Shown: positions 2 through 11,046, counted from the first letter of the stretch. The stretch: DNA of 11,046 bases from Candidatus Eiseniibacteriota bacterium (GCA_041483195.1 JBGPFC010000064.1:1-11046), one strand, 5' to 3'. Numbers and translations are program-made. The notes: generated by a model not told the origin, from the letters alone.

Positions 2-511
2 ACGCTCAACAGCTTCGTGAGCACCAATCCGGTGTTCGCGGTGGATGAGTCGGGCTCGTTCACGCTGGCGCCGGGGGCGAGCCTCACGCTGCACGTGACG
101 TTCACGCCGCCGGCGGCCGGGACCTACACGGGCAAGCTTTACCTCAGGTCGGTGAGCGCGAGCGAGCTGATCGCGCAGGACGTCGAGCTCCGGGGCGTCA
201 CCGGCCCGCGACCTTACTCGGCGCCGCTCGCGGCGGAACGGGCGACGGGCCGGTTCGAGCTCCACGCGGGGACCCCGAACCCGGCGCGCGCGGCGACCAC
301 GATCGCGTTCGAGCTGCCGCGCGCCTCGAGGGTCACGCTCGAGGTGTTCGGGGTGGACGGCCGGATGCGGGAGCGGCTGCTCGACACGGTGCTGCCGGCG
401 GGGTCTCACGAGCGGATCTGGGCGCCGAAGGACGCGGCGAGCGGCGTCTACTTTTACCGACTCACCGCGGGGAGCCAGGTCGCGACGCGCAAGGTGGTGT
501 TCTTGAGGTAG
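2..511 (+). CDS. 3' end (5'-truncated) of a secreted protein: ASH/choice-of-anchor-D-like Ig domain followed by a T9SS type A / FlgD-Ig-like C-terminal sorting domain
   Basis: The frame is open from base 2 (TLNSFVSTNPVFAV...) to TAG at 509-511, so the GTG at 17 is probably internal. 'FTLAPGASLTLHVTFTPPAAGTYTGKL' fits the ASH/Ig pattern. 'PNPARAATTIAFELP...VTLEVFGVDGR...ASGVYFYRLTAG...TRKVVFLR' fits the typical PNP...SGVY...K C-terminal secretion tail. Confidence 0.85.
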   Translation, partial: TLNSFVSTNPVFAVDESGSFTLAPGASLTLHVTFTPPAAGTYTGKLYLRSVSASELIAQDVELRGVTGPRPYSAPLAAERATGRFELHAGTPNPARAATTIAFELPRASRVTLEVFGVDGRMRERLLDTVLPAGSHERIWAPKDAASGVYFYRLTAGSQVATRKVVFLR

Positions 512-538
512 CGCGTGAGTGGGTCGCGGGTGCGCCGG

Positions 539-1894
539 CTACGCGCCCGCCGGCTCGCCGCTCACGCGCCGGTGCTCGCGCGCGATCAGCGCCACGATCG
601 CGAGCCACGCGATCACCAGCACGATGTTCACGCCCGCCACGCTCGATGGCGCGAGCCGGAGCGACGTCACCGCCAGCACCACGCCCGCCGACAGCACGTC
701 GCCCGCGCGCACGAAGAACGTGTCGATCGCGGCCTTGGCCTTGTACTTCGCCTCGCGGGTGGTGGGCAGGAACAGCGCCTGGCGCGTGGTGTTCTGGAGC
801 GAGTAGTCGGTGGCGTTCTCGAGAATCTTCACGCCGCGGATGACCCCGATCACCGGTGTCAGCGCCAGCACCGCGTAGCCGCCGAGCGCGATGACCGGCA
901 GCACGAACAGCGCGGCGCGCACGCCGAACCACTTGAGCACGCGCGACACCACGAACAGCTGCACCAGCGCGCTCACCACGTTCACCCACGTGAAGAAGCC
1001 AGCGTAGAACTGCCCGATGAAGCGCTCCTTGAATTCCGCGGAGGACGTCGTGCCCAGGTGTCCGGCCGCGATCATGCGGTCGGCGCCGAGCGCGAGCGTC
1101 TTGCCCAGGATGTACTCGCCGTTGGTGTTCACCACGTTCAGCACCAGCATCAGCAGCGCGATCAGCAGCAGGTAGCGGTCGCTCATCACCAGCCGGAATC
1201 CGCCGACGCTCTCGAGCGGCGCGTCGGCCGCGACCGTGTGTCCGGCCGCGCCATGCGCCGCGTGCTCGCGCGCGCTTACCACGCGCGAGAGCGCAGCGGC
1301 GAGCGCGAGCAGCGCGGCGGCGACCAGCATCGGGGTGTACGTGCCGAACGCGCCGATCAGGGGCCTGGCGATCCACGCGCCAACGATCGCGCCCAGGCTC
1401 GAGCCGAACGCCACGACCGCGAACAGCCGCTTGCCCTGCTCCGGGGTGTACACGTCGTTCGCGAACGACCAGAACTGGGCGACGATCATGAGGTTGAAGA
1501 TTCCGACCCACAGGAAGAACGCAACGCCGAGATGCTGCACCTTCATCTGCCCGAGCAGCCAGAAGACGGCGAGGTGGCTGATGAAGAACAGCGTCACCCA
1601 GCTGATCAGCTTCGCGCGGCCCACGCGGCTCGCGAACGCGCCGTAGGCCGGCACCAGCACCACCAGCAGCGCGGCCATCCCGGCGGAGGCGTAGCTCTTC
1701 ACCTCCGCGCCTTCGCCGCCGAGAATCAGCGCCTCGCGCAGCGGCTTGAGGATGTAGTAGCTCGTGAGCAGCAGGAACACGTCGAGCATCAGCAGCAGCG
1801 CGGTGAGCCCCTCGCCCGGCCGAACCTCGGCGAACGGCGCGAGCATGCGGTCCAGCGCCGTCCGGCGCGCGACCCGCGGGTGAATCTCGCTCAC
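539..1894 (-). CDS. TLC/NTT (Npt1/Npt2) family nucleotide translocase, MFS-like, about 451 aa
   Basis: C-terminal part of ORF 539..2665. The GTG at 1892-1894 overlaps the upstream TGA (GTGA). About 12 hydrophobic segments. Family-like motifs: YYILKPLREALIL, QFWSFANDVYTPEQGKRLF, NTNGEY, DYSLQNTTRQALFLP, KYKAKAAIDTFFVRAGD. Confidence 0.9.
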   Translation of the reverse strand: MSEIHPRVARRTALDRMLAPFAEVRPGEGLTALLLMLDVFLLLTSYYILKPLREALILGGEGAEVKSYASAGMAALLVVLVPAYGAFASRVGRAKLISWVTLFFISHLAVFWLLGQMKVQHLGVAFFLWVGIFNLMIVAQFWSFANDVYTPEQGKRLFAVVAFGSSLGAIVGAWIARPLIGAFGTYTPMLVAAALLALAAALSRVVSAREHAAHGAAGHTVAADAPLESVGGFRLVMSDRYLLLIALLMLVLNVVNTNGEYILGKTLALGADRMIAAGHLGTTSSAEFKERFIGQFYAGFFTWVNVVSALVQLFVVSRVLKWFGVRAALFVLPVIALGGYAVLALTPVIGVIRGVKILENATDYSLQNTTRQALFLPTTREAKYKAKAAIDTFFVRAGDVLSAGVVLAVTSLRLAPSSVAGVNIVLVIAWLAIVALIAREHRRVSGEPAGA

Positions 1895-3213
1895 GGCGCC
1901 TGCGGCGGGTGCGCGAGATCGATGCGGTCGAGCGGCGAGGCGCGGCCGCCGCTGCGCACGCGATACGCCTGCATCGTGAGCGCGCCATCCGGCGCGCCCG
2001 CGGGAGGGAGCGCCAGCCGGCAGAAGTTGTACACCGATTTCGAGAACACGGACGACGGCACGATGCCGATGCCCGGAGGCAGCGGCTTCGCCAGCTCGAT
2101 GTCGCGGATCCTGGGATCGAGCACGTAGAGCGGCGCGCCGCCCCCGGCGGCGGTGATGTGCCAGAACCCGCCGCCGTTCGCGCCGCGCACGAACACGCGC
2201 TGATACAGGTGCTCGTGCCCGGTGAACGCCGCCGTGACGCCGCGCGCGACGAACATCTCGAGCAGCCGCTCGCGCCGCTTCGCCGCGGGATCCTCCGGCC
2301 GATGGCTGTCCCACGCGTTGCGATAGTGGCCGGCCGAGATCAACGGGTGATGGAAGACGACGAACTTCCAGCGGGCGGGGAGCGCGAGCACCGAGTCGGC
2401 CCACGCGAGCTGCGCCTCCGCGAGGTCCGCCGCCGCGCCGCGATGCGTGTCGCGCAGCGCGTTGGAGTCGAGCACCACGATGCGGGCGTCGCAGTCGGGC
2501 AGGTCGAGCGCGAACCAGTAGCGCCCGGGCTCGGCCGGCGCGCCCATCGTCGCGTCCCAGTTGGCGCGGGCGAGCGAATCCGCGGTGCGCTCGTGGTTGC
2601 CGGGGGTGGCGACGAACAGCGTGCGCGCGCGGAGCGCCTCGTGACGGTCGACGAAGCGCCGCCACAGCCCGCCGCGCCGCCCGTCGGTGACCAGATCGCC
2701 GTTCGACACCACGAGATCGGCGGGCAGCTGCCGCTCGAGCGCGCGCAGCACGCTGGTCTCCGCGCCGCCGGTGGGCGCCTTGCTCCAGTGCGCGATGATG
2801 TCGCGGGGAATGTCGAGGTTCGGAACGATGCCGACCACCAGGAACACCGGAATGGCGGCGAGCCCGCGCGCGAGCTTGATCGGGTGCTTGAACGACATCC
2901 GCTTCACCGCCCGCATCAATCGCGAGTGCGCCTGCAGGCGCATGCCCGCGCGGTTGTCGCCGTAGATGAGCACGACCGTGCTGTCGGCGCCGTGGGCTGC
3001 GGCGCGTGCGCCCATGCGGTGGTGCGCGGCGTCGGTCGAGCCGGGCGCGAGCCGCGCGTCGCCGCCGGGCTCGAACGCGGTGACCGCGCCGGGCACCGGC
3101 GCCGCGCCGCGATAGGCGGCGATCGGCGCGCAGCCCGCGAGCGCGGCGACCAGGACGGCCGCAAGCGCCGGCGCTAGCGCGGCGCGGCGGACCGGCTCCG
3201 TGACGCGCGTCAT
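1891..3213 (-). CDS. Lipoprotein calcineurin-like metallophosphoesterase (purple acid phosphatase-like), about 440 aa
   Basis: ATG at 3211-3213 overlaps the upstream TGA (ATGA). The N-terminus MTRVTEPVRRAALAPALAAVLVAALAGC ends in a lipobox (LAGC). All five metallophosphoesterase motifs are in order: YGDNR, NGDLVTDG, PGNHE, VFHHP, FTGHEHLYQR. Confidence 0.9.
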   Translation of the reverse strand: MTRVTEPVRRAALAPALAAVLVAALAGCAPIAAYRGAAPVPGAVTAFEPGGDARLAPGSTDAAHHRMGARAAAHGADSTVVLIYGDNRAGMRLQAHSRLMRAVKRMSFKHPIKLARGLAAIPVFLVVGIVPNLDIPRDIIAHWSKAPTGGAETSVLRALERQLPADLVVSNGDLVTDGRRGGLWRRFVDRHEALRARTLFVATPGNHERTADSLARANWDATMGAPAEPGRYWFALDLPDCDARIVVLDSNALRDTHRGAAADLAEAQLAWADSVLALPARWKFVVFHHPLISAGHYRNAWDSHRPEDPAAKRRERLLEMFVARGVTAAFTGHEHLYQRVFVRGANGGGFWHITAAGGGAPLYVLDPRIRDIELAKPLPPGIGIVPSSVFSKSVYNFCRLALPPAGAPDGALTMQAYRVRSGGRASPLDRIDLAHPPQAP

Positions 3214-4529
3214 GGCGTCACCGCGTCGCGAGCGTCGCCCAGCCAGCGGCGCGCGATCGCGTCGCGCCGCGCGATCAGAACCTTCGCCAGGTAATCGGCC
3301 GAGCGCGGATCGGAATACCTTCCGCGCGCGATCGCGGCGCGAACGATGTCGTCCGAGAACGCCGCCACGATGCGCGCGCCCCACCGCACGTCCCGCTCGG
3401 TGCGCTCGTCGAAGGCGGGGTTGGGGTAATCCGGGCGCCAACCTTCCGGGTCGAAGGCGCTCGCCTCGATGAAGCCGACGCTCGTCAGGTGCGGGTCCAC
3501 GATCCTCTCCCATGGGAACGGCACGAGCCCCAGCGTAAGGAGCGAGCGCGCCATGACGCCGTAATCCACGAAGTACTCGTTGCCCGTCATGTACGACTTG
3601 CTCGCGATCGAGCCGGCGCCCAGGCAGCCGTTGAAGTCGATCAGGTAATGGCGCACGAACCGGCGGCCGCCCTCGTCCACCCACACGTCGAGCGAGTTGG
3701 GCCCGCGCACGTCGGCGTGGTTGGTCCACGCCGCGATCGTCCACAGCCCGCGCAGCTCGCGGCGCAGCTGGTGGGGGATCAGGTCCTCCGGGTCGTCGCG
3801 CCTGCGCCCGCGAAACTCGCGGGGGCCGAGCGGCTTGCCGCGAATCAGCCGGCTCACGAGCACGCGATAGCTTCCATCCGGCTCGCGAGCGGCCTTCTTC
3901 AGCAGGCGCGCGACGTCCTCGCGCGTCATCGCGCGCTTGCGCCCGAGCGCGTCGGTGAGCTTCGCGCTGGGGGAGACGTCCAGGCTCTCGGGGCGGAAGA
4001 ACGCGATCGCGTCGTCCGGCACGTTGTAGCCCGCCGCCCAGAACAGGTAGCAGGACACGATGTCGGCGCTGGTCGCCATCTCGAGGTCGTCCGGCTCGTC
4101 GAACTTGACGATGAATCGCGCGCCTTCCGCGTCCTGGATGAAGAAGCCGGGCGTGACGCCCTGGGTCTTCGCGCGCGTCACCGTCCAGCGGCCGGGCGCG
4201 GGGCCCGAGCCCGGGCCGGGTCCGCGCAGCATCTGCTCGACCGTCACCTCGCGAAATCCCAGCCGTGGCTGCCACCAGGTGCTCGGGAGCCGCACCCGAT
4301 CGCTCGAATCCACGTTCGCCGCCTCGCGCGGCCGGCGCGCGAGCTTGCGGATCCCGAGCGCCGGATCGAAGAGCCGCGTGACCGGGCGCACGAAGCTGTT
4401 GTCGAACAGGTCGTAGTAGTACGAGATCTCCGTGGCCTCGGGCTCCGGCGGGGCGGCAAGCGTGGCGGCATGCGCCGCCACCGGCGCGAGCGCGATCAGC
4501 GCGGCGCGCGCCGCGGCGCGCGCCCTCAC
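3210..4529 (-). CDS. Exported protein with an atypical kinase-like fold (HipA/PI3K-PI4K-like), about 439 aa
   Basis: GTG at 4527-4529 has GGAGG 6 nt upstream and overlaps the previous stop. Sec-type signal MRARAAARAALIALAPVAAHA. Ordered kinase-like motifs: QGVTPG (Gly loop), FIVKFD (beta3 Lys, codon 4104-4106), EMATSADIVSCYLFWAAGYNVP (alphaC region), HADVRGPN (catalytic loop, DVRGPN at 3696-3713), YLIDFNG (DFG-like, IDF at 3633-3641), C-terminal YLAKVLIARRDAI helix. The CDS is secure; the kinase call is motif-based. Confidence 0.75.
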   Translation of the reverse strand: MRARAAARAALIALAPVAAHAATLAAPPEPEATEISYYYDLFDNSFVRPVTRLFDPALGIRKLARRPREAANVDSSDRVRLPSTWWQPRLGFREVTVEQMLRGPGPGSGPAPGRWTVTRAKTQGVTPGFFIQDAEGARFIVKFDEPDDLEMATSADIVSCYLFWAAGYNVPDDAIAFFRPESLDVSPSAKLTDALGRKRAMTREDVARLLKKAAREPDGSYRVLVSRLIRGKPLGPREFRGRRRDDPEDLIPHQLRRELRGLWTIAAWTNHADVRGPNSLDVWVDEGGRRFVRHYLIDFNGCLGAGSIASKSYMTGNEYFVDYGVMARSLLTLGLVPFPWERIVDPHLTSVGFIEASAFDPEGWRPDYPNPAFDERTERDVRWGARIVAAFSDDIVRAAIARGRYSDPRSADYLAKVLIARRDAIARRWLGDARDAVTP

Positions 4530-5908
4530 TCGACGCCTCCGAGCGTGTACTGGATCCGCAGCGCCTCGGCGCTCCAGTCCACGCCGATCGCGCCCAGCGG
4601 CGCGGCCTTCGAGCGCGGCCGCAACGCGACGCCGTACGAGCCCTTCAGGGTGTCGAGCCGCGCGTCGTGCTGGAGATCGGGGTAGACGCCGCCCGCCTCC
4701 GCGTGAGCTTCGAACTCGAAGCTCTTCGCGAGCGGGAAGATGTACGAGAGCTTGACCACCATCGCGTCGAGGTCGTGAAAGCGATGCGGCTCGAAGCCGG
4801 CGAGCCCTTCGGATCCGCCGAGCCGCGCGAGGTCGGGGAGCGGGAGCACGCGCCCCTCGCGGGGCGATGGCTCGGTGTCCACCGCCTTGAACCTCACTCG
4901 CAGCGTGCGCGGGTCGCGCATGAACGAAATGCCCGCCTCTGCATCGAGCGTGTAACGGTTGAACGAGTTGGCACTCTGAGCCGGCTTCGAGCCGTGGTAG
5001 GGCCCGAACGCACCGAGGGTGAAGTCGGCGTCGATGCGCTCGGCGCTGAACGCGGCGCGCGCTCCGTGCGTCCAGTGCGGCGCGCCGCCGCGCAGGTCGA
5101 CCGCGGCCCGCGCGCCGCTCACGACTTGCGCGAAGGACCGGTCGCGCTGGCGGGTCCTGGGGAATTCGACGTCGGTCGATGGCGACGCGCTGTCGTGTCC
5201 GCGGCGCGTCACCAGCGCGCGCTCTTCGAGCCACATCGACAGCTGTCCCCGCGGGCTGCCCCCCGCGAGTTTCACAGGAACCGCGAGCGCGAATCGCGCG
5301 GTCTGACTCTGCCACGCGTAGTCGCTCGCGCTCGAGTGCGCGGACTGGAGCCCGGTGCCGTAGAAGCGATCCTGCGGCCGCCACTCGCTCCGATACCCGA
5401 GCGAGAGCGGGCCGCCCGCAAGCGCGGCCTGCACCACTCCATATCCGCGCGTGCTGCCTTCCATCAGCAGCGTGAGCGGCCGCGCGGGCAGCGGCGGCCG
5501 GTAGCCGAGCTTCGCGCCGATTCCGGTGCGATCGCCGAGGCTCGCGGGCAGGATCGCGATCCCCGCGCGCGGGAGCTCGGCGAACACGAACAGCGCGCGC
5601 GGGATCAGCGACTGCTGCTCGGCGCGGAGCATCCCGTTGCGCGTGAGCCAGCCCAGCCCCGAGAGCGGAAGCGACACGATCCGGCCGGGCAGGCGCACCA
5701 CGGTCTCCCACGGCTCGGCCGCCGGGATCGCGCGCGGAGGGTTCCACGGTGGGGCGGTGGTGGGGCCGAGATCGTCCGGGCCGCCGTTCGCGGGCGCGGC
5801 GGAGGCGGTGTCCATCGGCGCGCCCTGCGCGCGCGCGGCCGCCGCGCCGAGCGATAGCCCGAACAACGCCAGCAGGATGGGAGCGACGGGGCCTGGGGGG
5901 CGGAACAT
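4526..5908 (-). CDS. Omp85/BamA-TamA-like outer-membrane beta-barrel protein without recognisable POTRA domains, about 460 aa
   Basis: ATG at 5906-5908 starts a signal peptide (MFRPPGPVAPILLALFGLSLGAAAARA/QG). Many alternating amphipathic beta-strands. 'RFYGTG' and 'LARLGGSEGLAGFEPHRFHD' resemble the Omp85 LGG..LRG(F/Y)...RF loop-6 motif. It ends with 'EAGGVY...SYGVALR...IGVDWS..ALRIQYTLG' terminal strands. Confidence 0.75.
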   Translation of the reverse strand: MFRPPGPVAPILLALFGLSLGAAAARAQGAPMDTASAAPANGGPDDLGPTTAPPWNPPRAIPAAEPWETVVRLPGRIVSLPLSGLGWLTRNGMLRAEQQSLIPRALFVFAELPRAGIAILPASLGDRTGIGAKLGYRPPLPARPLTLLMEGSTRGYGVVQAALAGGPLSLGYRSEWRPQDRFYGTGLQSAHSSASDYAWQSQTARFALAVPVKLAGGSPRGQLSMWLEERALVTRRGHDSASPSTDVEFPRTRQRDRSFAQVVSGARAAVDLRGGAPHWTHGARAAFSAERIDADFTLGAFGPYHGSKPAQSANSFNRYTLDAEAGISFMRDPRTLRVRFKAVDTEPSPREGRVLPLPDLARLGGSEGLAGFEPHRFHDLDAMVVKLSYIFPLAKSFEFEAHAEAGGVYPDLQHDARLDTLKGSYGVALRPRSKAAPLGAIGVDWSAEALRIQYTLGGVE

Positions 5909-5920
5909 GGCAGGTTCGCG

Positions 5921-5949
5921 ACGATTCCATGAAGCCCGCGGCAAGTCAA
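5921..5949 (-). promoter_or_regulatory. Candidate sigma70-type promoter for the minus-strand four-gene operon
   Basis: The minus strand reads TTGACT (5949-5944), 17 nt, then AATCGT (5926-5921), preceded by TGG (extended -10-like). This implies a very short leader before ATG 5908, consistent with the lack of a Shine-Dalgarno. Confidence 0.4.
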
Positions 5950-5977
5950 CGCCGGATCCACTTGCGGGTCCGGCGTT
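5948..5977. repeat. 12-bp imperfect inverted repeat in the divergent intergenic region (possible operator)
   Basis: AACGCCGGATCC (5948-5959), ACTTGC, GGGTCCGGCGTT (5966-5977): 11 of 12 positions Watson-Crick complementary, the other a G.T. Confidence 0.7.
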
Positions 5978-5990
5978 CGCCCGCTAGCGT
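5962..5990 (+). promoter_or_regulatory. Candidate sigma70-type promoter for the NTT-HEAT/cNMP operon
   Basis: TTGCGG (5962-5967), 17 nt, TAGCGT (5985-5990), ending 25 nt upstream of ATG 6016. Confidence 0.45.
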
Positions 5991-6015
5991 CCCGGGCTCC
6001 ACCCGGGGCCCCCTG

Positions 6016-8733
6016 ATGTTCGAACGCATCGCGTCTCACCTGAAGCTCGAGCCCGCCGAGTTGAGGCGCGCGATTTTGCTCGGCCTCACGCTGTCCACGC
6101 TGACGGGCTCCTACACGCTGGTGAAGACCGCGCGCGACGCGCTGTTCCTCGCGCGCATGCCGGCCACCACGCTACCGTACGTATTCCTCGGGGTCGGAGC
6201 GCTCACGCTCGCGGCGGCCTCGCTGTTCGCGCGCGCGACGCGCAACCGCGCGACCCACGAGACGCTGGCGGCGGGATCGCTCGCGGCCGCGGTGTCGCTC
6301 GCGGCGTTCGCGCTGCTGTTCCGAATCCACGCGAGCTGGGTGGCGATCGCGTTCTACCTGTGGGTGAACGTCTACGGCCTCCTGCTTTTCTCCCAGTTCT
6401 GGATCTACACCAACAGCATGAGCCATCCGCGCGAGGCGAAGCGCATCTTCGGCATCGTCGGCGTGGGAGGGATCCTGGGCGGCCTCACGGGGGGATTGCT
6501 CGCCGCGCCGCTCGCGCATGGGTTCGGAGTCACGTCGATGCTGCTGGCGGCGTCGATCCTCCTCGCGCTGGTGGCGCCCCGCGTCTACCTGGGCATGCGG
6601 CACGGCGTGCTGCCCCGGCCCGAGCCGGTGGCGGACGAGGCGACGCCGCCCCAGCACCCGCTTCACCACCGCTACGTGCGCTGGCTCGCGCTCGCCGCGC
6701 TGTGCTCGGTGATCGTCACCGGGCTGCTCGACTATCAGTTCAAGGTCGAGATCCAGCGCCGCTTCCCATCGGGCGCGGACCTGGCCTCGTTCCTCGGCCT
6801 GTTCTACACCGCGATCAACCTCGCGGCGCTCGTCGTGCAGCTGTTCGCGACGCGCTGGGCGCTGCAGGTGCTGGGCGCGGGGTGGTCGGCCGCGGTGCTC
6901 CCGGGCGGGCTCGGGCTGGGCGCCGCGATCACCATGCTGGTGCCGGGCTTCGGCGCGGTGCTGGGCTCGCGACTCTGGGACCAGGTCATGCGCCAGTCCA
7001 TCAATCGCTCATCGGTCGAGCTGTTCTACATTCCACTCGAGCCCGGGCTGCGGCGGCGCGCGCGCTCATCGATCGAGGCCGGGCTCGAGCGCGTGGGCGA
7101 CGGCCTCGCCGGCCTCCTGATCCTCGCGGCGGGCGCCGCGATGGGCGCCGGCACCTTCACGCTCGCGGCGCTGATCGCGGCGGTGGTGGTGGTGTGGATC
7201 GTCGCGTGGATGCAGGTGCGCCGCGGGTACGTCACCGAGCTGGGCCGCAATCTGCGCCGAATGAATCTCCAATCGCACCACGAGCCGGTTTCGCTGCGCG
7301 AGGCGAGCATGCTGCGCGAGATGGCGCGGCTGCTCGACAGTCCGTACGAGCGGGTGCTGATTCACGGCATGACGCTGCTGGAGGAGAACGCGCCAGACAC
7401 GCTGGCGGAGCGCGTGCCGAGCCTGCTCGCGCATCCGCGGCCGGCGGTGCGCGCGCGCGCGCTCGCGGCCGTGGCGGCGCACGGGCTGCAGGGACTCGCC
7501 GCGGAGGTGAACGCGCTGGTGACCGACCCCGATCCCGACGTGCGCATCGCGGCGCTGCGCGCGCACTGCACGCTCGGGTGCGACGATCCCGCCGGGCGCA
7601 TCGAGGAATTTCTCGCGGCGGAGGACCCGCGCCTGCGTCACGCGGCGATCCAGCTCGCTGTGGAGTTCGCGCCGGCGGGCGAGGAGCTGAAGGTGAAGGC
7701 CGTGCTCGAGAACCTGATGCGCGACGGGTCGTCCGCGGAGCGGACGGCGGTCGCCGAGGCGCTGGGGCGCCGCGCGCCGCCGAGCGTGCTGCACGATCTG
7801 CTCTCGCCGCTCCTGCGCGACGCCGACCTCGAGACCCGCTGCGCCGCGCTGCGCAGCGCGGGCCGCGCGCAACGCCGCAATCACATTCCGGCGCTGATCG
7901 AGGCGATCGGCGCGCGCCCCACCCAGCGTGCCGCCCGCCACGGGCTGGCCGGGTTCGGCGATCGCGTGGTCGGAACGCTCGGCGACTACCTGAGCGATTC
8001 GAGCGTTGCCACCGAGATCCGCCAGCGACTGCCCTACGTGCTGGGCGACATCGCGAGCCAGGAATCGCTCGCGGCGCTGCTCCGCTGCCGCGAGACCGGG
8101 GACGTGCGGCTCTGGTACCGCGTGCTCAAGGCGCAGAATCGGATGCGCGCGGCCGGCGCGCGCGTCGAGTTCCCGCGCGCGCGGGTGACCGAGGACCTGG
8201 AGCGCGACGTGCGCAGCTACCTGTTCGCGTACGTCCACTACCGCGCGTGCCCGCTCGGCGAGAAGCGCAGCGCCGAGCGATTGTTCTGCATCGCGCTCAA
8301 CGAGCGCCTCGACCAGTCGCTCAATCGCGTGTTCCGGCGTCTCGCGCTGCTCTACCGGCCGGAGAACATGCTGGCCGCCTACCAGGGCACGGTGTCGGAC
8401 CAGCCCCGGCTGCGCGGCAACGCGGTCGAGTATCTCGAGAACGCGCTCGCGCCGGACCACCGCGCGCTGGTGCTCCCGCTGGTCGCGGACGGCGGCGATC
8501 AGGCGCGGCTCGCCTTCGCGGAGGTGCGCTTCGGAATCCGCTTCACCACCTTCAACGATTCGCTCGAGGCGATCCTCGCCGGGGAGGATCAGTGGCTCCG
8601 CACCTGCGCGTTGTTCGTGGTCGGCGCGCGCAAGGAGCGCGCGCTGGCGGCGCAGGTCAAGGCCGCGGCCTCCGCGCTCGATCTGCGCGTGCGCGAGACC
8701 GCTCTCTGGGCCAGCCTCGCGATGGAGATCTGA
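6016..8733 (+). CDS. TLC/NTT-family transporter fused to C-terminal HEAT repeats, about 905 aa
   Basis: ATG 6016 (MFERIASHLKLEPAELRR) chosen because earlier starts overlap the Omp85 gene or the promoter region. The N-terminal ~410 aa has about 12 TM segments with NTT motifs YTLVKTARDALFL, SQFWIYTNSMSHPREAKRIFGIVGVGGILGG, LLDYQFK, ELFYIPL and IEAGLERVGDG. It is followed by HEAT-like repeats (LLAHPRPAVRARAL, LVTDPDPDVRIAAL, LLRDADLETRCAAL, RLRGNAVEYLEN, DQWLRTCAL, DLRVRETA). Confidence 0.9.
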   Translation: MFERIASHLKLEPAELRRAILLGLTLSTLTGSYTLVKTARDALFLARMPATTLPYVFLGVGALTLAAASLFARATRNRATHETLAAGSLAAAVSLAAFALLFRIHASWVAIAFYLWVNVYGLLLFSQFWIYTNSMSHPREAKRIFGIVGVGGILGGLTGGLLAAPLAHGFGVTSMLLAASILLALVAPRVYLGMRHGVLPRPEPVADEATPPQHPLHHRYVRWLALAALCSVIVTGLLDYQFKVEIQRRFPSGADLASFLGLFYTAINLAALVVQLFATRWALQVLGAGWSAAVLPGGLGLGAAITMLVPGFGAVLGSRLWDQVMRQSINRSSVELFYIPLEPGLRRRARSSIEAGLERVGDGLAGLLILAAGAAMGAGTFTLAALIAAVVVVWIVAWMQVRRGYVTELGRNLRRMNLQSHHEPVSLREASMLREMARLLDSPYERVLIHGMTLLEENAPDTLAERVPSLLAHPRPAVRARALAAVAAHGLQGLAAEVNALVTDPDPDVRIAALRAHCTLGCDDPAGRIEEFLAAEDPRLRHAAIQLAVEFAPAGEELKVKAVLENLMRDGSSAERTAVAEALGRRAPPSVLHDLLSPLLRDADLETRCAALRSAGRAQRRNHIPALIEAIGARPTQRAARHGLAGFGDRVVGTLGDYLSDSSVATEIRQRLPYVLGDIASQESLAALLRCRETGDVRLWYRVLKAQNRMRAAGARVEFPRARVTEDLERDVRSYLFAYVHYRACPLGEKRSAERLFCIALNERLDQSLNRVFRRLALLYRPENMLAAYQGTVSDQPRLRGNAVEYLENALAPDHRALVLPLVADGGDQARLAFAEVRFGIRFTTFNDSLEAILAGEDQWLRTCALFVVGARKERALAAQVKAAASALDLRVRETALWASLAMEI

Positions 8734-8735
8734 CC

Positions 8736-9272
8736 GTGGACGAGACCCTGACGCTCATCGAGAAGACGGCGTTTCTCAAGGGCATGGACGTGCTCGCGAG
8801 CGTACCGACCGAGGCGCTCGCCCAGCTCGCGGCGCGCGCGCGCGAGTTCCATCACGAGGCGGGCGACGTCGTGTTCGCGCAGGGCGAGGCCAATCGCGGC
8901 GCGTTCGTGATCGTCGAGGGGCTGGTCGAGCTGCGACGCGGGCGGGCGCTGGTGCGCATGTTGCGCGACGGCGACGCGTTCGGCGAGGTGTTCTCGAACG
9001 AGGGCGATCCGCACGAGTATTCGGGCATCGCATCGACCCACGCCCACGTCCTGAACGTGACGCTCGCGGAGATGTGGGACGCGATGCTCGACTTCCCGGA
9101 GTTCGCGGTGGGCATGGTGCGCTCGGTGTCGCGCCGAAATCACGAGCTCACCACGCGGCTGCTCGAGCTGGAGGGCCTGCTCGAGCGTTTCCACGCTGCG
9201 CTGAAGCAGGCCGGGATCGATCCGCCCGCGCCGCCGGTGGGCGAGTTGGCGCCTACCACGGTGAAGTTGTAG
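8736..9272 (+). CDS. Stand-alone cyclic nucleotide-binding (cNMP/Crp-type) domain protein, about 178 aa, with no HTH
   Basis: GTG at 8736, 2 nt after the upstream TGA, with GGAG at 8724-8727. Motifs LIEKTAFLKGMDVL, GDVVFAQGE, FVIVEGLV, GDAFGE. It ends in a C-terminal helix/coiled coil (RRNHELTTRLLELEGLLERF) and a Pro-rich tail. Confidence 0.88.
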   Translation: MDETLTLIEKTAFLKGMDVLASVPTEALAQLAARAREFHHEAGDVVFAQGEANRGAFVIVEGLVELRRGRALVRMLRDGDAFGEVFSNEGDPHEYSGIASTHAHVLNVTLAEMWDAMLDFPEFAVGMVRSVSRRNHELTTRLLELEGLLERFHAALKQAGIDPPAPPVGELAPTTVKL

Positions 9273-9438
9273 GGCGGGCGACGAGATCGCCGCTATCGGG
9301 AATCATCAGGATCAGAGGCTGGCGCCGAATGTGCGCACCCCTAATATGCGCCGAGGGGGGTCGATTTGAGGGCGCAGTTGTCGTTGATCTGCAATCGGTT
9401 GCGGGGTTCTAAGAGCTCCGGGCATGAGCAAAAATCAT

Positions 9439-9467
9439 TTGACCGCCAGCGCAGATCGTTGCATGTT
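9439..9467 (+). promoter_or_regulatory. Candidate sigma70-type promoter
   Basis: TTGACC (9439-9444), 17 nt, CATGTT (9462-9467), preceded by the A/T-rich tract AAAAATCAT (UP-element-like), which is unusual in this GC-rich window. Confidence 0.4.
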
Positions 9468-9739
9468 CTTGGCCCCATCTGGGCCGCACTAGCCATGTTC
9501 GGACGAGGAGAATTGCCTGCCAGGGACGGGAGCGCCGAGGCCGTTCGATTCCACGAGCGACCCCTCGGGCGAACTCGTCCACTAAGGTTCGTGTGGATCG
9601 GGTGCGTGCATCATGGGGGAAATTCGCAATCATCGTCTCTGTGCCTCGTTCAGTTGCGCCGTGGCTGGATGTGCAGCGAATCGAATGAGCTGGACTGCGA
9701 GATGATGAGACACGACCGAGTCCACATCGGAGCGCCGCA

Positions 9740-10483
9740 TTGGCAATCGAGGTCTGGTGTTGGCCGTTCGAGGAAAGAATTCGCCGGTGGTGCGGCAATG
9801 CGGGGCACGCCGGCATCCGGATCGGCCAGACCGTCTACGACTTTCACCCGGCGCGTCACGATGGCGCGAATGTTCCTGTGAAGAGCTACCAGGATGAGGT
9901 TCCGAGGCTGACGATGAGCATGGCACGAGTCCTCGAAAAAAATCCCCTAGATCCAGAGTTGAATAAGCTGATCATGCGTGGATGCGTCTTGGATCGCACT
10001 CAGCGGGACGTCGCAAACGAGATGGCCGTCCAGTTCGATGTCTACGCACAGTGTCTGCAGAATCATGTTCAATTCGACAAGAACACGGGTGTATTTAAGG
10101 AGGGTCTCTACGGCGTACTCCCGAAGCTCCACGCATACCGCGTCGAGGCCGATGTGGCGGCGGAGCAGCGGCTCACCGCTTTCATCATGACCGAACAACG
10201 ACGAGTGCCCGATTACCACATTGCGCGGCACAATTGCACTCACTTCGTCCGCCGGTCGCTCGCCGTCAGCCTGATCAAGGTCCTGGACGGGGACGGTTGG
10301 CAGCCGCGCGGGGATCACCCCGGCAATTGGCGCCCGGACAAGTTTGATGCTCTCCTCCAAGAGCACTTCGGCCCCCCGAAGGAAGTGGCCCTCGCGTTGG
10401 AATTCCAAGAGGGTACCCGCCGGGCAGGGGGCAACAGCTTCTACTGGAAGGAACTCTCACCAATTTCTGAGTTCGCCGGTTGA
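9740..10483 (+). CDS. Circularly permuted papain-like (PPPDE/LRAT/permuted NlpC-P60-type) cysteine hydrolase, 247 aa
   Basis: TTG start with GGAG (9729-9732) 7 nt upstream. N-terminal His strand 'GHAGIRIGQTVYDF' and later 'YHIARHNCTHFVRRSL' (the Y.....NC..F pattern) give the His-before-Cys order of permuted papain folds. No signal peptide. Confidence 0.7.
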   Translation: MAIEVWCWPFEERIRRWCGNAGHAGIRIGQTVYDFHPARHDGANVPVKSYQDEVPRLTMSMARVLEKNPLDPELNKLIMRGCVLDRTQRDVANEMAVQFDVYAQCLQNHVQFDKNTGVFKEGLYGVLPKLHAYRVEADVAAEQRLTAFIMTEQRRVPDYHIARHNCTHFVRRSLAVSLIKVLDGDGWQPRGDHPGNWRPDKFDALLQEHFGPPKEVALALEFQEGTRRAGGNSFYWKELSPISEFAG

Positions 10484-10508
10484 TGCAACAATGCAGGGAG
10501 GGAGAAAG

Positions 10509-10892
10509 ATGGCGCGTCACAAGCCGGCTGTAGGCGAGATCACAATCGACAAGCGGTGGCTGGAGGGGGGAAATGTCACCCTCAAGACCGTCACCATCAG
10601 TGATCGGGCTCAGATCGCTGAAATCTGCGATGTGCTCGAGGTGGGCGAAGAGGTCGTCTATCACGTCCAGCGCCCGGACACGCCCACTTACACGGTGATG
10701 GAGTTGGGTGTGGGGGGCCGGAAGGTGCGGGAGACCAGAATCATCGGCGGGGAACTGATCCTTCGCGGGGACGCCTGGTATATTCCCAGCACCCCTCGGC
10801 TCCGAGCCGTCTTGGACAAGGTCTTGCGTCGCGCGTCCGAGACGAAGCTGCACCTAGCGACCAAGATGCGGGAGCTTCGCGCCACCCACTGA
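10509..10892 (+). CDS. Hypothetical protein, 127 aa
   Basis: ATG 10509 follows a strong Shine-Dalgarno (GGAGGGAG) and lies 25 nt after the preceding stop. Globular-looking composition (MARHKPAVGEITIDKRWLE...). No family recognised. Confidence 0.7.
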   Translation: MARHKPAVGEITIDKRWLEGGNVTLKTVTISDRAQIAEICDVLEVGEEVVYHVQRPDTPTYTVMELGVGGRKVRETRIIGGELILRGDAWYIPSTPRLRAVLDKVLRRASETKLHLATKMRELRATH

Positions 10893-10906
10893 CTACCGGG
10901 GTGTGG

Positions 10907-10925
10907 CTAGGAGCCTGTCCGAGTA
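10907..10925. mobile_element. Possible terminal inverted repeat of an IS or MITE next to a CTAG target
   Basis: CTAG followed by GAGCCTGTCCGAGTA resembles, from memory, ends of IS5/IS1182-type elements and derived MITEs. No transposase or partner end is visible in the window. Confidence 0.35.
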
Positions 10926-11046
10926 TTCGCAACGTCGGCGCGCATGATCCGAGATCCTGGGTGGTGCGCGTCGATCGTCGTTTCGGCCGGCCTGCGAAGG
11001 GATCCGCGACGCCCTCGGCGGCGGTCGACCTCGCCCCGGGCCACGG

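Follow-up and report, generated by a model that had tools for sequence, protein, structure and literature searches.

The question raised by this locus is what is made, and where it acts, by a gene whose protein product finds no match in Pfam (E <= 1), in NCBIfam or among the chains of the PDB (phmmer). The gene, here called gene B, lies on a contig of Candidatus Eiseniibacteriota bacterium (GCA_041483195.1 JBGPFC010000064.1:1-11046), the whole of which, 11,046 nucleotides, is referred to below as the window; an earlier note, made from the sequence, had read its product as an exported kinase of HipA/PI4K-like fold. The present analysis recovers that fold and adds the operon context, which the note did not cover and which holds most of the biological interest, so that the finding on gene B widens into a four-part envelope module. 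The explanation that is favoured, with a confidence somewhat above an even chance, is that gene B would encode a periplasmic kinase docked on an Omp85-family barrel, phosphorylating at the outer membrane, balanced by a phosphatase and fed by a TLC carrier.

3210..4529, minus strand: gene B, exported atypical protein-kinase-like enzyme, 439 amino acids, GTG start with GGAGG ahead.

The open reading frame (ORF) of gene B comprises 439 codons and a stop and has a third-position GC content of 0.93. The window as a whole is 72% GC, and mechanical ORF lists are consequently crowded with false frames; the ORF listed over gene B is one of 906 amino acids (3210-5930, minus strand), in which the coding frame, as traced by third-position GC, switches at ~4530, so that this ORF represents two genes in different frames. 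Every motif listed in the earlier note is present in gene B in the order given there, and residue conservation in 110 homologs, set out below, shows that chance does not account for them: GVTPG (G124 to G128), VKF (V141-K142-F143), a helix (151-165) ending in G167-YNVP, DVRGPN (D273 to N278), IDFNG (I297 to G301) and a C-terminal helix with L418, R421-R422 and I425.

An AlphaFold2 model of the gene B protein, built with the homolog alignment (predicted local distance difference test, pLDDT, 94.4; predicted template modelling score, pTM, 0.91), shows, together with the structure searches made with it, a bilobed kinase fold. A Foldseek search of the PDB placed Fam20C, Hydra Fam20, CtkA, PI4KII-alpha, VPS34, HipA and HipT on top, with probabilities of 0.9-1.0 for Fam20, CtkA and PI4KII. 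A second, Foldseek-independent structure search (VIA), run over 48,161 chains, returned 14 matches with Z >= 8 (10.1-13.8), every one an atypical kinase, before the next rank falls to 7.6. The highest Z was that of CtkA (13.8, over 221 residues at a root-mean-square deviation of 3.8), accompanied by Fam20 (PDB 4kqa, 5xom and 5yh0; 11.9-12.8), PI4KII-alpha (4hnd and 4pla; 12.4 and 12.2), CotH (12.2), actin-fragmin kinase (12.1), HipT (10.7), HipA (10.6 and 10.2) and MavQ (7m7a; 10.1). These are nearly exactly the families that had been expected (HipA, PI4K, CtkA, CotH and Fam20-like kinases), and with atypical kinases as the only matches at Z >= 8, the fold proposed in the note is upheld.

The residues on which catalysis would depend are kept across the family, including the three that the note had named. 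The beta-3 Lys (K142) is present in 107 of the 110 homologs, an acidic C-helix residue at position 156 in 99, the catalytic Asp (D273) in 107, the Asn downstream of it (N278) in 108 and the DFG-like Asp (D298) in 108, while position 275 is Arg in 64/110 and Lys in 32/110. The model places K142 on strand 138-143, D273 and N278 on the loop joining helix 262-268 to strand 279-286, with D298 directly after strand 289-296. Seven further residues (H294, R421, D246, D249, H253, R257 and R260) are invariant in 110/110. Gene B is thus predicted to encode a phosphotransferase with a protein-kinase-like fold and an intact catalytic set.

At the level of sequence, the same relationship can be traced only faintly. 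A profile of the 110 homologs found no solved structure in the PDB, its only match being a chance one to an Armadillo protein (E 0.63), and the Pfam profiles for Fam20, CotH (PF08757) and PI3_PI4_kinase gave no match to the gene B protein. Alignment by hhalign with E. coli HipA and four HipAs of the window's phylum gave a weak match (probability 6.9%, E 0.005), used for register only, in which K142, D156, D273 and N278 fall onto HipA K181, E203, D309 and N314; sub-threshold Pfam HipA_2 or HipA_C matches in 11/70 homologs share this register (best 19.8 bits, cut-off 27). An Atlas feature search returned the Fam20C (PF06702), HipA_2 and PI3_PI4 (PF00454) clusters at 0.82-0.84 only, which is the level of a lead. 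The family also has invariants of its own, namely R89 in an N-terminal extension, R243-D246-D249-H253-R257-R260 ahead of the catalytic loop and, within the C-lobe, D380, W383 and R421; we know of no counterpart of R89, of the R243-R260 segment or of the C-lobe invariants in other families. On the evidence of its model, the protein belongs to a new family of atypical kinases, nearest to the CtkA/HipA/Fam20/CotH/PI4KII group.

The proposal that the protein is exported through a Sec signal is likewise supported. Under a simple hydropathy rule the N-terminus is Sec-signal-like, with an Arg-rich n-region, the hydrophobic stretch AALIALAPVAA and then AHA; heuristically, a hydrophobic signal-like segment is found in 108 of the 109 kinase homologs with a full N-terminus, and a lipobox-like Cys in ~38 of them. 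The family therefore alternates signal peptidase I and lipoprotein signals, as an exported family would.

Gene B is the second of four translationally coupled minus-strand genes (A, B, C and D), the start and stop codons of which overlap by 4 nucleotides. Its partners are the following.

4526..5908, minus strand: gene A, POTRA-less Omp85-family outer-membrane barrel, 460 amino acids, assigned by profile and fold (third-position GC 0.89).
1891..3213, minus strand: gene C, lipoprotein calcineurin-like metallophosphoesterase, 440 amino acids, with a LAGC lipobox and a Pfam Metallophos match.
539..1894, minus strand: gene D, TLC (ATP/ADP-carrier-type) inner-membrane transporter resembling the major facilitator superfamily, ~435-451 amino acids, Pfam TLC PF03219.

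The start of gene B overlaps the stop of gene A (GTGA) and its stop overlaps the ATG of gene C (ATGA); gene D begins either at a GTG at 1894, overlapping the gene C stop (GTGA), or at an ATG at 1846. A promoter and terminator scan of positions 400-6400 on both strands found none, a weak result that says little in a 72% GC genome, and PADLOC gave no match for genes A-D. Among the sequencing runs listed as containing positions 540-5910, none is an RNA run. With both flanking genes overlapping gene B, no antitoxin-like gene adjoins it, as the earlier note had stated. An ordinary HipA-type toxin of a toxin-antitoxin module, mis-read as exported, is therefore scarcely credible as the gene B product: HipA and HipT do occur among the structural matches (Z 10.2-10.7), and one homolog (P0059) bears the UniRef name 'HipA domain-c...', but gene B itself has no HipA_C (PF07804) or HipA_2 (PF20613) match at E <= 1, no HipA_C match occurs anywhere in the window's own genome, and the adjoining genes are an Omp85 barrel and a phosphoesterase, not a HipB/HipS-type gene. 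The export signal in nearly all homologs, the absence of a PADLOC match and an outer-membrane barrel as the conserved partner are equally at odds with a cytoplasmic toxin paired with its antitoxin. The suggestion made in the note that this is a distinct envelope-kinase family rather than a HipA toxin is in keeping with the export signals and with the lack of any family-profile match.

The identity of the gene A product rests on several concordant observations. For the window's own copy there is no Pfam match (E <= 0.1), whereas a profile of 76 gene A homologs matches F. nucleatum BamA (9ccg; 6e-12), TamA (8e-11) and BamA (8e-9); the AlphaFold2 model (pLDDT 86.8) finds the BamA barrel 7nre (9e-11), as well as Sam50 and TamA, in Foldseek; and the family consensus contains an LGGxxxLRGF-type loop-6 motif and a terminal Phe. 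Profile, fold and loop-6 consensus together place gene A in the Omp85 superfamily. Behind a signal peptide and a disordered linker, the protein has two long N-terminal helices and a barrel of ~16 strands, and in the single model examined and by Pfam no POTRA-like beta-alpha-alpha-beta-beta unit is seen ahead of the barrel, where the two helices stand instead.

The pairing of genes A and B is strict. Of the 100 kinase loci sampled, 20 belong to the window's phylum and the other 80 to named species genomes; after removal of 2 duplicates, 98 remained, and in 93 of them the DNA upstream extends for 1 kb or more. A gene A homolog lies directly upstream of the kinase gene, on the same strand, in 92 of these 93, and in the sole exception (L078) the upstream position gives a weak, 22%-identity tblastn match to gene A.

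A physical contact between the two products is predicted by co-folding of A(60-460) with B(24-439). Three runs, made with our own alignments, gave values of the interface score ipSAE of 0.68, 0.68 and 0.69, and three controls gave 0.00; the runs share at least 94% of their contacts, with a pLDDT of at least 83 for the partner. The ipSAE mark applied was reached by 116/157 solved complexes and by 2/215 mismatched pairs, a calibration that holds only roughly here because of the use of our own alignments. As no solved complex of this kind is known to us, the co-fold is unlikely to have passed by reproducing a structure that the model had already learnt. The predicted interface brings the N-terminal helices of A (60-107) and its residues 330-334 and 389-399 into contact with B 34-60, 192-196, 240-255 and 312-341. 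In the strand order of the gene A model, A 330-334 and 394-397 are short turns flanking the long, LRGF-bearing loop 6, which by known Omp85 topology makes them periplasmic turns, and gene B is accordingly predicted to dock on the periplasmic face of the barrel. The hydrophobic patch MARSLLTLGLVPFPW, for which the earlier note had suggested contact with a membrane or lipid substrate, is in this model placed otherwise, with B 326-341 predicted to lie on the periplasmic turns of the Omp85 barrel.

That the components belong together is also indicated by gene fusions. Seven relatives of the kinase were found when longer proteins were searched. In P0279 and P0281 the kinase is N-terminal and an Omp85 barrel C-terminal, both matching PF01103 (5e-20 for P0279, the N-terminus of which is a lipobox); P0124, P0277 and P0278 carry a C-terminal PAP2 domain behind the kinase; and in P0276 the kinase is joined to a Peptidase_S51 domain. 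Three Eisenbacteria loci further contain a barrel ORF with an N-terminal PAP2 domain (L038:5692-7992, L054:3654-5999 and L055:4767-6956). The kinase-barrel order of the fusions is the opposite of the gene order, which shows that these are not read-through artefacts, and the combinations imply that kinase, barrel and phosphatase act together. Omp85 barrels have their N-terminus in the periplasm, and the fused kinase and phosphatase modules would therefore act at the periplasmic face.

The same pairing could be read as a type V-like secretion system, in which the gene A barrel would move gene B across the outer membrane to the surface or beyond, as with CtkA. The Omp85 superfamily includes dedicated protein translocators (reviews PMC5422565, PMC4104836), the A-B gene pair is strict, the kinase-first order of P0279 and P0281 is that of a type Vd passenger-barrel autotransporter, and CtkA, a secreted H. 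pylori kinase, is the best structural match. Such export is nevertheless considered unlikely, since the gene A model has two helices and no POTRA domain ahead of the barrel, and since no Pfam family, hence no TPS domain, matched gene B; the features of types Vb and Vd, POTRA domains on the barrel and a TPS domain on the cargo, are thus both missing as far as one model and Pfam can show. POTRA domains are used by both TpsB, which moves TpsA, and PlpD, the barrel of which moves its patatin. The co-fold, moreover, docks a folded kinase on the periplasmic turns, and a lipoprotein phosphatase, PAP2 domains on the periplasmic N-terminus of the barrel and an inner-membrane TLC carrier all suit action within the periplasm better than secretion.

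The phosphatase of the window is encoded by gene C, the product of which matches Pfam Metallophos (PF00149; 6.5e-11; 43.5 bits, cut-off 21.5) and contains the motifs GDNR, GNHE and GHEH. Its NCBIfam match to a cAMP phosphodiesterase is weak (2.8e-5) and far under the cut-off. A metallophosphoesterase gene is found in 33/98 kinase loci, in 29 of them together with a TLC gene, and PAP2 phosphatase genes lie on the same strand in 11 loci. A reading of the PAP2 domain of P0124 as an inner-membrane anchor was dropped, because PAP2 is also found fused to the barrel at its periplasmic N-terminus and because PAP2 enzymes can be soluble proteins of the periplasm.

The carrier, gene D, is a member of Pfam TLC (PF03219; 8e-16; 58.3 bits, cut-off 21), and a TLC gene lies within ~7 kb of the kinase in 47/98 loci. 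Co-inheritance was assessed in a phylum sample of 201 genomes, in which 82 (the unpublished genome G014 included) have the kinase, at E <= 1e-10, together with a D-type carrier, at E <= 1e-60, 17 the kinase only, 5 the carrier only and 97 neither, an association to be taken as descriptive. In two genomes (G020 and G082) both genes are present and not adjacent. Within the window's own family the distribution is patchy (kinase in 31/86 genomes, carrier in 30/86), as would be expected of an accessory module whose genes are acquired and lost together.

A carrier of this kind beside a phosphoesterase and a barrel permits another use of the kinase fold to be considered, in which gene B would be a pseudokinase or nucleotide-binding adaptor, would catalyse AMPylation or would use a donor other than ATP, and carrier, phosphoesterase and barrel would scavenge external nucleotides. 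The periplasm is generally held to be free of ATP, the characterised TLC carriers are importers, an outer-membrane barrel, a periplasmic phosphoesterase and a nucleotide transporter make a plausible scavenging route, and gene C weakly resembles cyclic-nucleotide phosphodiesterases; kinase-fold enzymes with other chemistries are known. This appears distinctly improbable all the same. The full catalytic set, with its Asp-x-[RK]-x-x-Asn, is retained by 99 to 108 of the 110 homologs, as pseudokinases do not usually retain it, and Omp85 barrels are not known as nucleotide channels. In addition, half of the loci have the barrel-kinase pair without carrier and phosphoesterase, which implies that the pair has a function of its own.

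In the explanation that is preferred, that of an Omp85-docked periplasmic kinase, gene B would leave the cytoplasm by its Sec-type signal, as many of its relatives would as lipoproteins, and would dock under the gene A barrel through its N-terminal helix, the RxDDPxDxxxH segment and the segment following the DFG-like Asp, filling the place held by POTRA domains in BamA and TamA. So docked, it would phosphorylate an outer-membrane substrate, either a protein (cargo of the barrel or a component of the envelope) or the head group of a lipid or glycolipid, two possibilities given roughly equal weight. Its structural neighbours include both protein kinases (CtkA, Fam20C, CotH and HipA) and lipid or sugar kinases (PI4KII, MavQ and Fam20B-like); the PAP2 partners lean towards lipid phosphates, and the metallophosphoesterases towards protein or nucleotide phosphoesters. 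A periplasmic phosphatase, the metallophosphoesterase here and PAP2 in other lineages (the folds being unrelated), may reverse or balance the reaction, and the TLC carrier would fuel it by swapping cytoplasmic ATP for periplasmic ADP, in the direction opposite to that of the characterised importers. Export of ATP by the carrier is suggested by its co-inheritance with the kinase and by the known substrate class of its family. The broader proposition, that many diderm phyla run ATP-dependent periplasmic phosphorylation in which TLC carriers export ATP, barrel-bound kinases act and phosphatases reset the substrate, is entertained as a possibility, at rather less than an even chance.

Several observations weigh against the explanation preferred. 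The likeness of the kinase family to any known kinase family is below significance at the sequence level, and the co-fold score is the model's own confidence, obtained with our own alignments. Gene D belongs to the TLC family only distantly, scoring 43.8 bits where the TIGR00769 cut-off is 387; no TLC gene is nearby in 51/98 kinase loci, and 17 of the 99 kinase-bearing genomes in the phylum sample are without a D-type carrier at E <= 1e-60. The genomes of that sample are related and the counts not independent, so that the association of kinase and carrier is not a clean statistic. The characterised TLC carriers are ATP importers, with no member known to release ATP into a periplasm. Finally, metallophosphoesterase and PAP2 folds also serve nucleotidases and lipid phosphatases, and their presence is therefore no proof of reversible phosphorylation of one substrate.

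Compared with CtkA (PDB 3akj) and HipA/HipT (4pu3, 5k98 and 7ab3), gene B has in common the order of the Lys, the C-helix acid, the D-x-x-x-x-N loop and the DF motif, and CtkA is, moreover, described as leaving the cell. It differs from CtkA and HipA in showing no significant sequence similarity, in ~100 extra N-terminal residues with the invariant R89 and an S83/W85 motif, in the invariant RxDDPxDxxxHxxRRxLR (243-260), in its export signal, in the absence of an antitoxin and in its obligate Omp85 partner. Fam20C and Fam20B are secretory-pathway kinases that work outside the cytosol and depend for their ATP on an ATP/ADP exchanger of the endoplasmic reticulum and Golgi, the part of which would here be taken by the TLC carrier if it indeed exports ATP; gene B, in contrast, has no Pfam Fam20C match, belongs to another domain of life and is paired with an outer-membrane barrel. 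With the lipid kinases PI4KII-alpha and MavQ the likeness lies in the D-x-R-x-x-N catalytic loop, as in DRHxxN kinases, and in the association of the kinase family with PAP2 domains, the usual substrates of which are lipid phosphates, whereas the lack of a PI3_PI4_kinase Pfam match, the Arg or Lys at position 275 and the predicted binding of the putative lipid segment to the barrel set gene B apart.

The partners of gene B have relatives of their own. The kinase-barrel and PAP2-barrel fusions mimic the module-plus-barrel layout of BamA and TamA (POTRA) and of PlpD (patatin-POTRA-barrel, type Vd), with the difference that the module here is a kinase, encoded in the window by a separate, translationally coupled gene. 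Gene A shares the lack of POTRA domains with the 'noNterm' Omp85 class, which Heinz and Lithgow (2014) define (PMC4104836); the words 'kinase', 'operon' and 'neighbor' do not occur in the main text of that paper. Gene D shares Pfam TLC with the ATP/ADP translocases of Rickettsia and Chlamydia but lies far below their TIGR00769 cut-off, its proposed direction (ATP out, ADP in) is the opposite of that of the characterised importers, and its host is a free-living sediment bacterium, judging by the labels of the sequencing runs that contain this DNA.

The textbook view is that the Gram-negative periplasm is free of ATP and of kinases. An intact kinase active site, an export signal found throughout the family, a dedicated barrel and a co-inherited ATP/ADP-carrier homolog together make that assumption directly testable. 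No description of an Omp85-paired exported kinase was found among titles and the openings of abstracts, in a literature search with limited coverage of subscription journals. If true, the proposed system would provide bacteria with an equivalent of the kinases of the eukaryotic secretory pathway, and Omp85 barrels with a role new to them. It would account for two groups of proteins, the enigmatic Omp85 barrels without POTRA domains and the TLC homologs that free-living bacteria possess, and would define an atypical-kinase branch that current family libraries miss. Even on a conservative reading, the protein represents a new and widespread kinase family with an obligate Omp85 partner, deserving a family definition of its own, and confirmation of the reading at the level of the whole system would make that categorically new.

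The spread of the family was gauged at several depths. Of 8,000 candidates scored in a word-indexed search, 1,093 proteins reached E <= 0.001, with no Pfam domain among the 120 relatives listed, and an exhaustive search found 2,618 cluster representatives (50% identity) at E <= 0.001, 734 of them at E <= 1e-30; contigs from one genome per species hold at least 577 kinase matches. Named genomes with a kinase locus come from Eisenbacteria, Acidobacteriota, Zixibacteria, Calditrichota, KSB1, Latescibacterota, Marinimicrobia, Krumholzibacteria and others. Outside the window's clade, relatives are mostly ~560 amino acids long and end in an extra domain of ~120 residues with no Pfam match (alignment columns 500-658), which the window's kinase and its close kin do not have. 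The kinase gene is also found on contigs labelled Clostridia (L107), Bifidobacteriaceae (L069) and Limnocylindria (L051 and L053). An Omp85 gene adjoins it in L107, L051 and L053, while in L069 the kinase abuts the end of the contig, which does not extend upstream of it. Members of those groups are not expected to have an outer-membrane barrel, and at least the barrel-bearing contigs are therefore probably mis-binned or mis-labelled. In a related genome (G083:C11:111598-112820), a second copy of the kinase lies in pieces with two in-frame TGA codons and is probably a decaying paralog.

Divergent from the operon, and outside the core A-B pair, the window contains two associated neighbours.

5980..8733 (start approximate), plus strand, divergent: gene E, second TLC-type transporter, fused to HEAT repeats.
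8700..9272 (start approximate), plus strand: gene F, cyclic-nucleotide-binding domain protein (cNMP_binding, 1e-11).

Gene E matches Pfam TLC (2e-12) and HEAT_2 (1e-18), and its close homologs (51-60% identity) stand beside the A-B pair in four loci (L032, L033, L034 and L039); long TLC ORFs are found in many other kinase loci. Gene F lies directly after gene E; a gene of the F type also follows one of the E type in those four loci and in L049, and the E-F pair may be a cyclic-nucleotide-regulated nucleotide carrier.

In the remainder of the window, scans for tRNA genes and Rfam families returned nothing. From 9300 to 11046 the GC content falls from ~0.72 to ~0.60, and this terminal part of the contig may be of foreign origin or non-coding; the ORFs at 9740-10483 and 10344-10892 (plus strand) have no Pfam match. 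At the other end, positions 2-511 (plus strand) cover the 3' end of a gene whose product has an Ig-like domain and in which a sub-threshold match to Por_Secre_tail, the C-terminal sorting domain of type IX secretion (21.1 bits against a cut-off of 27), hints at cargo of that system in this organism.

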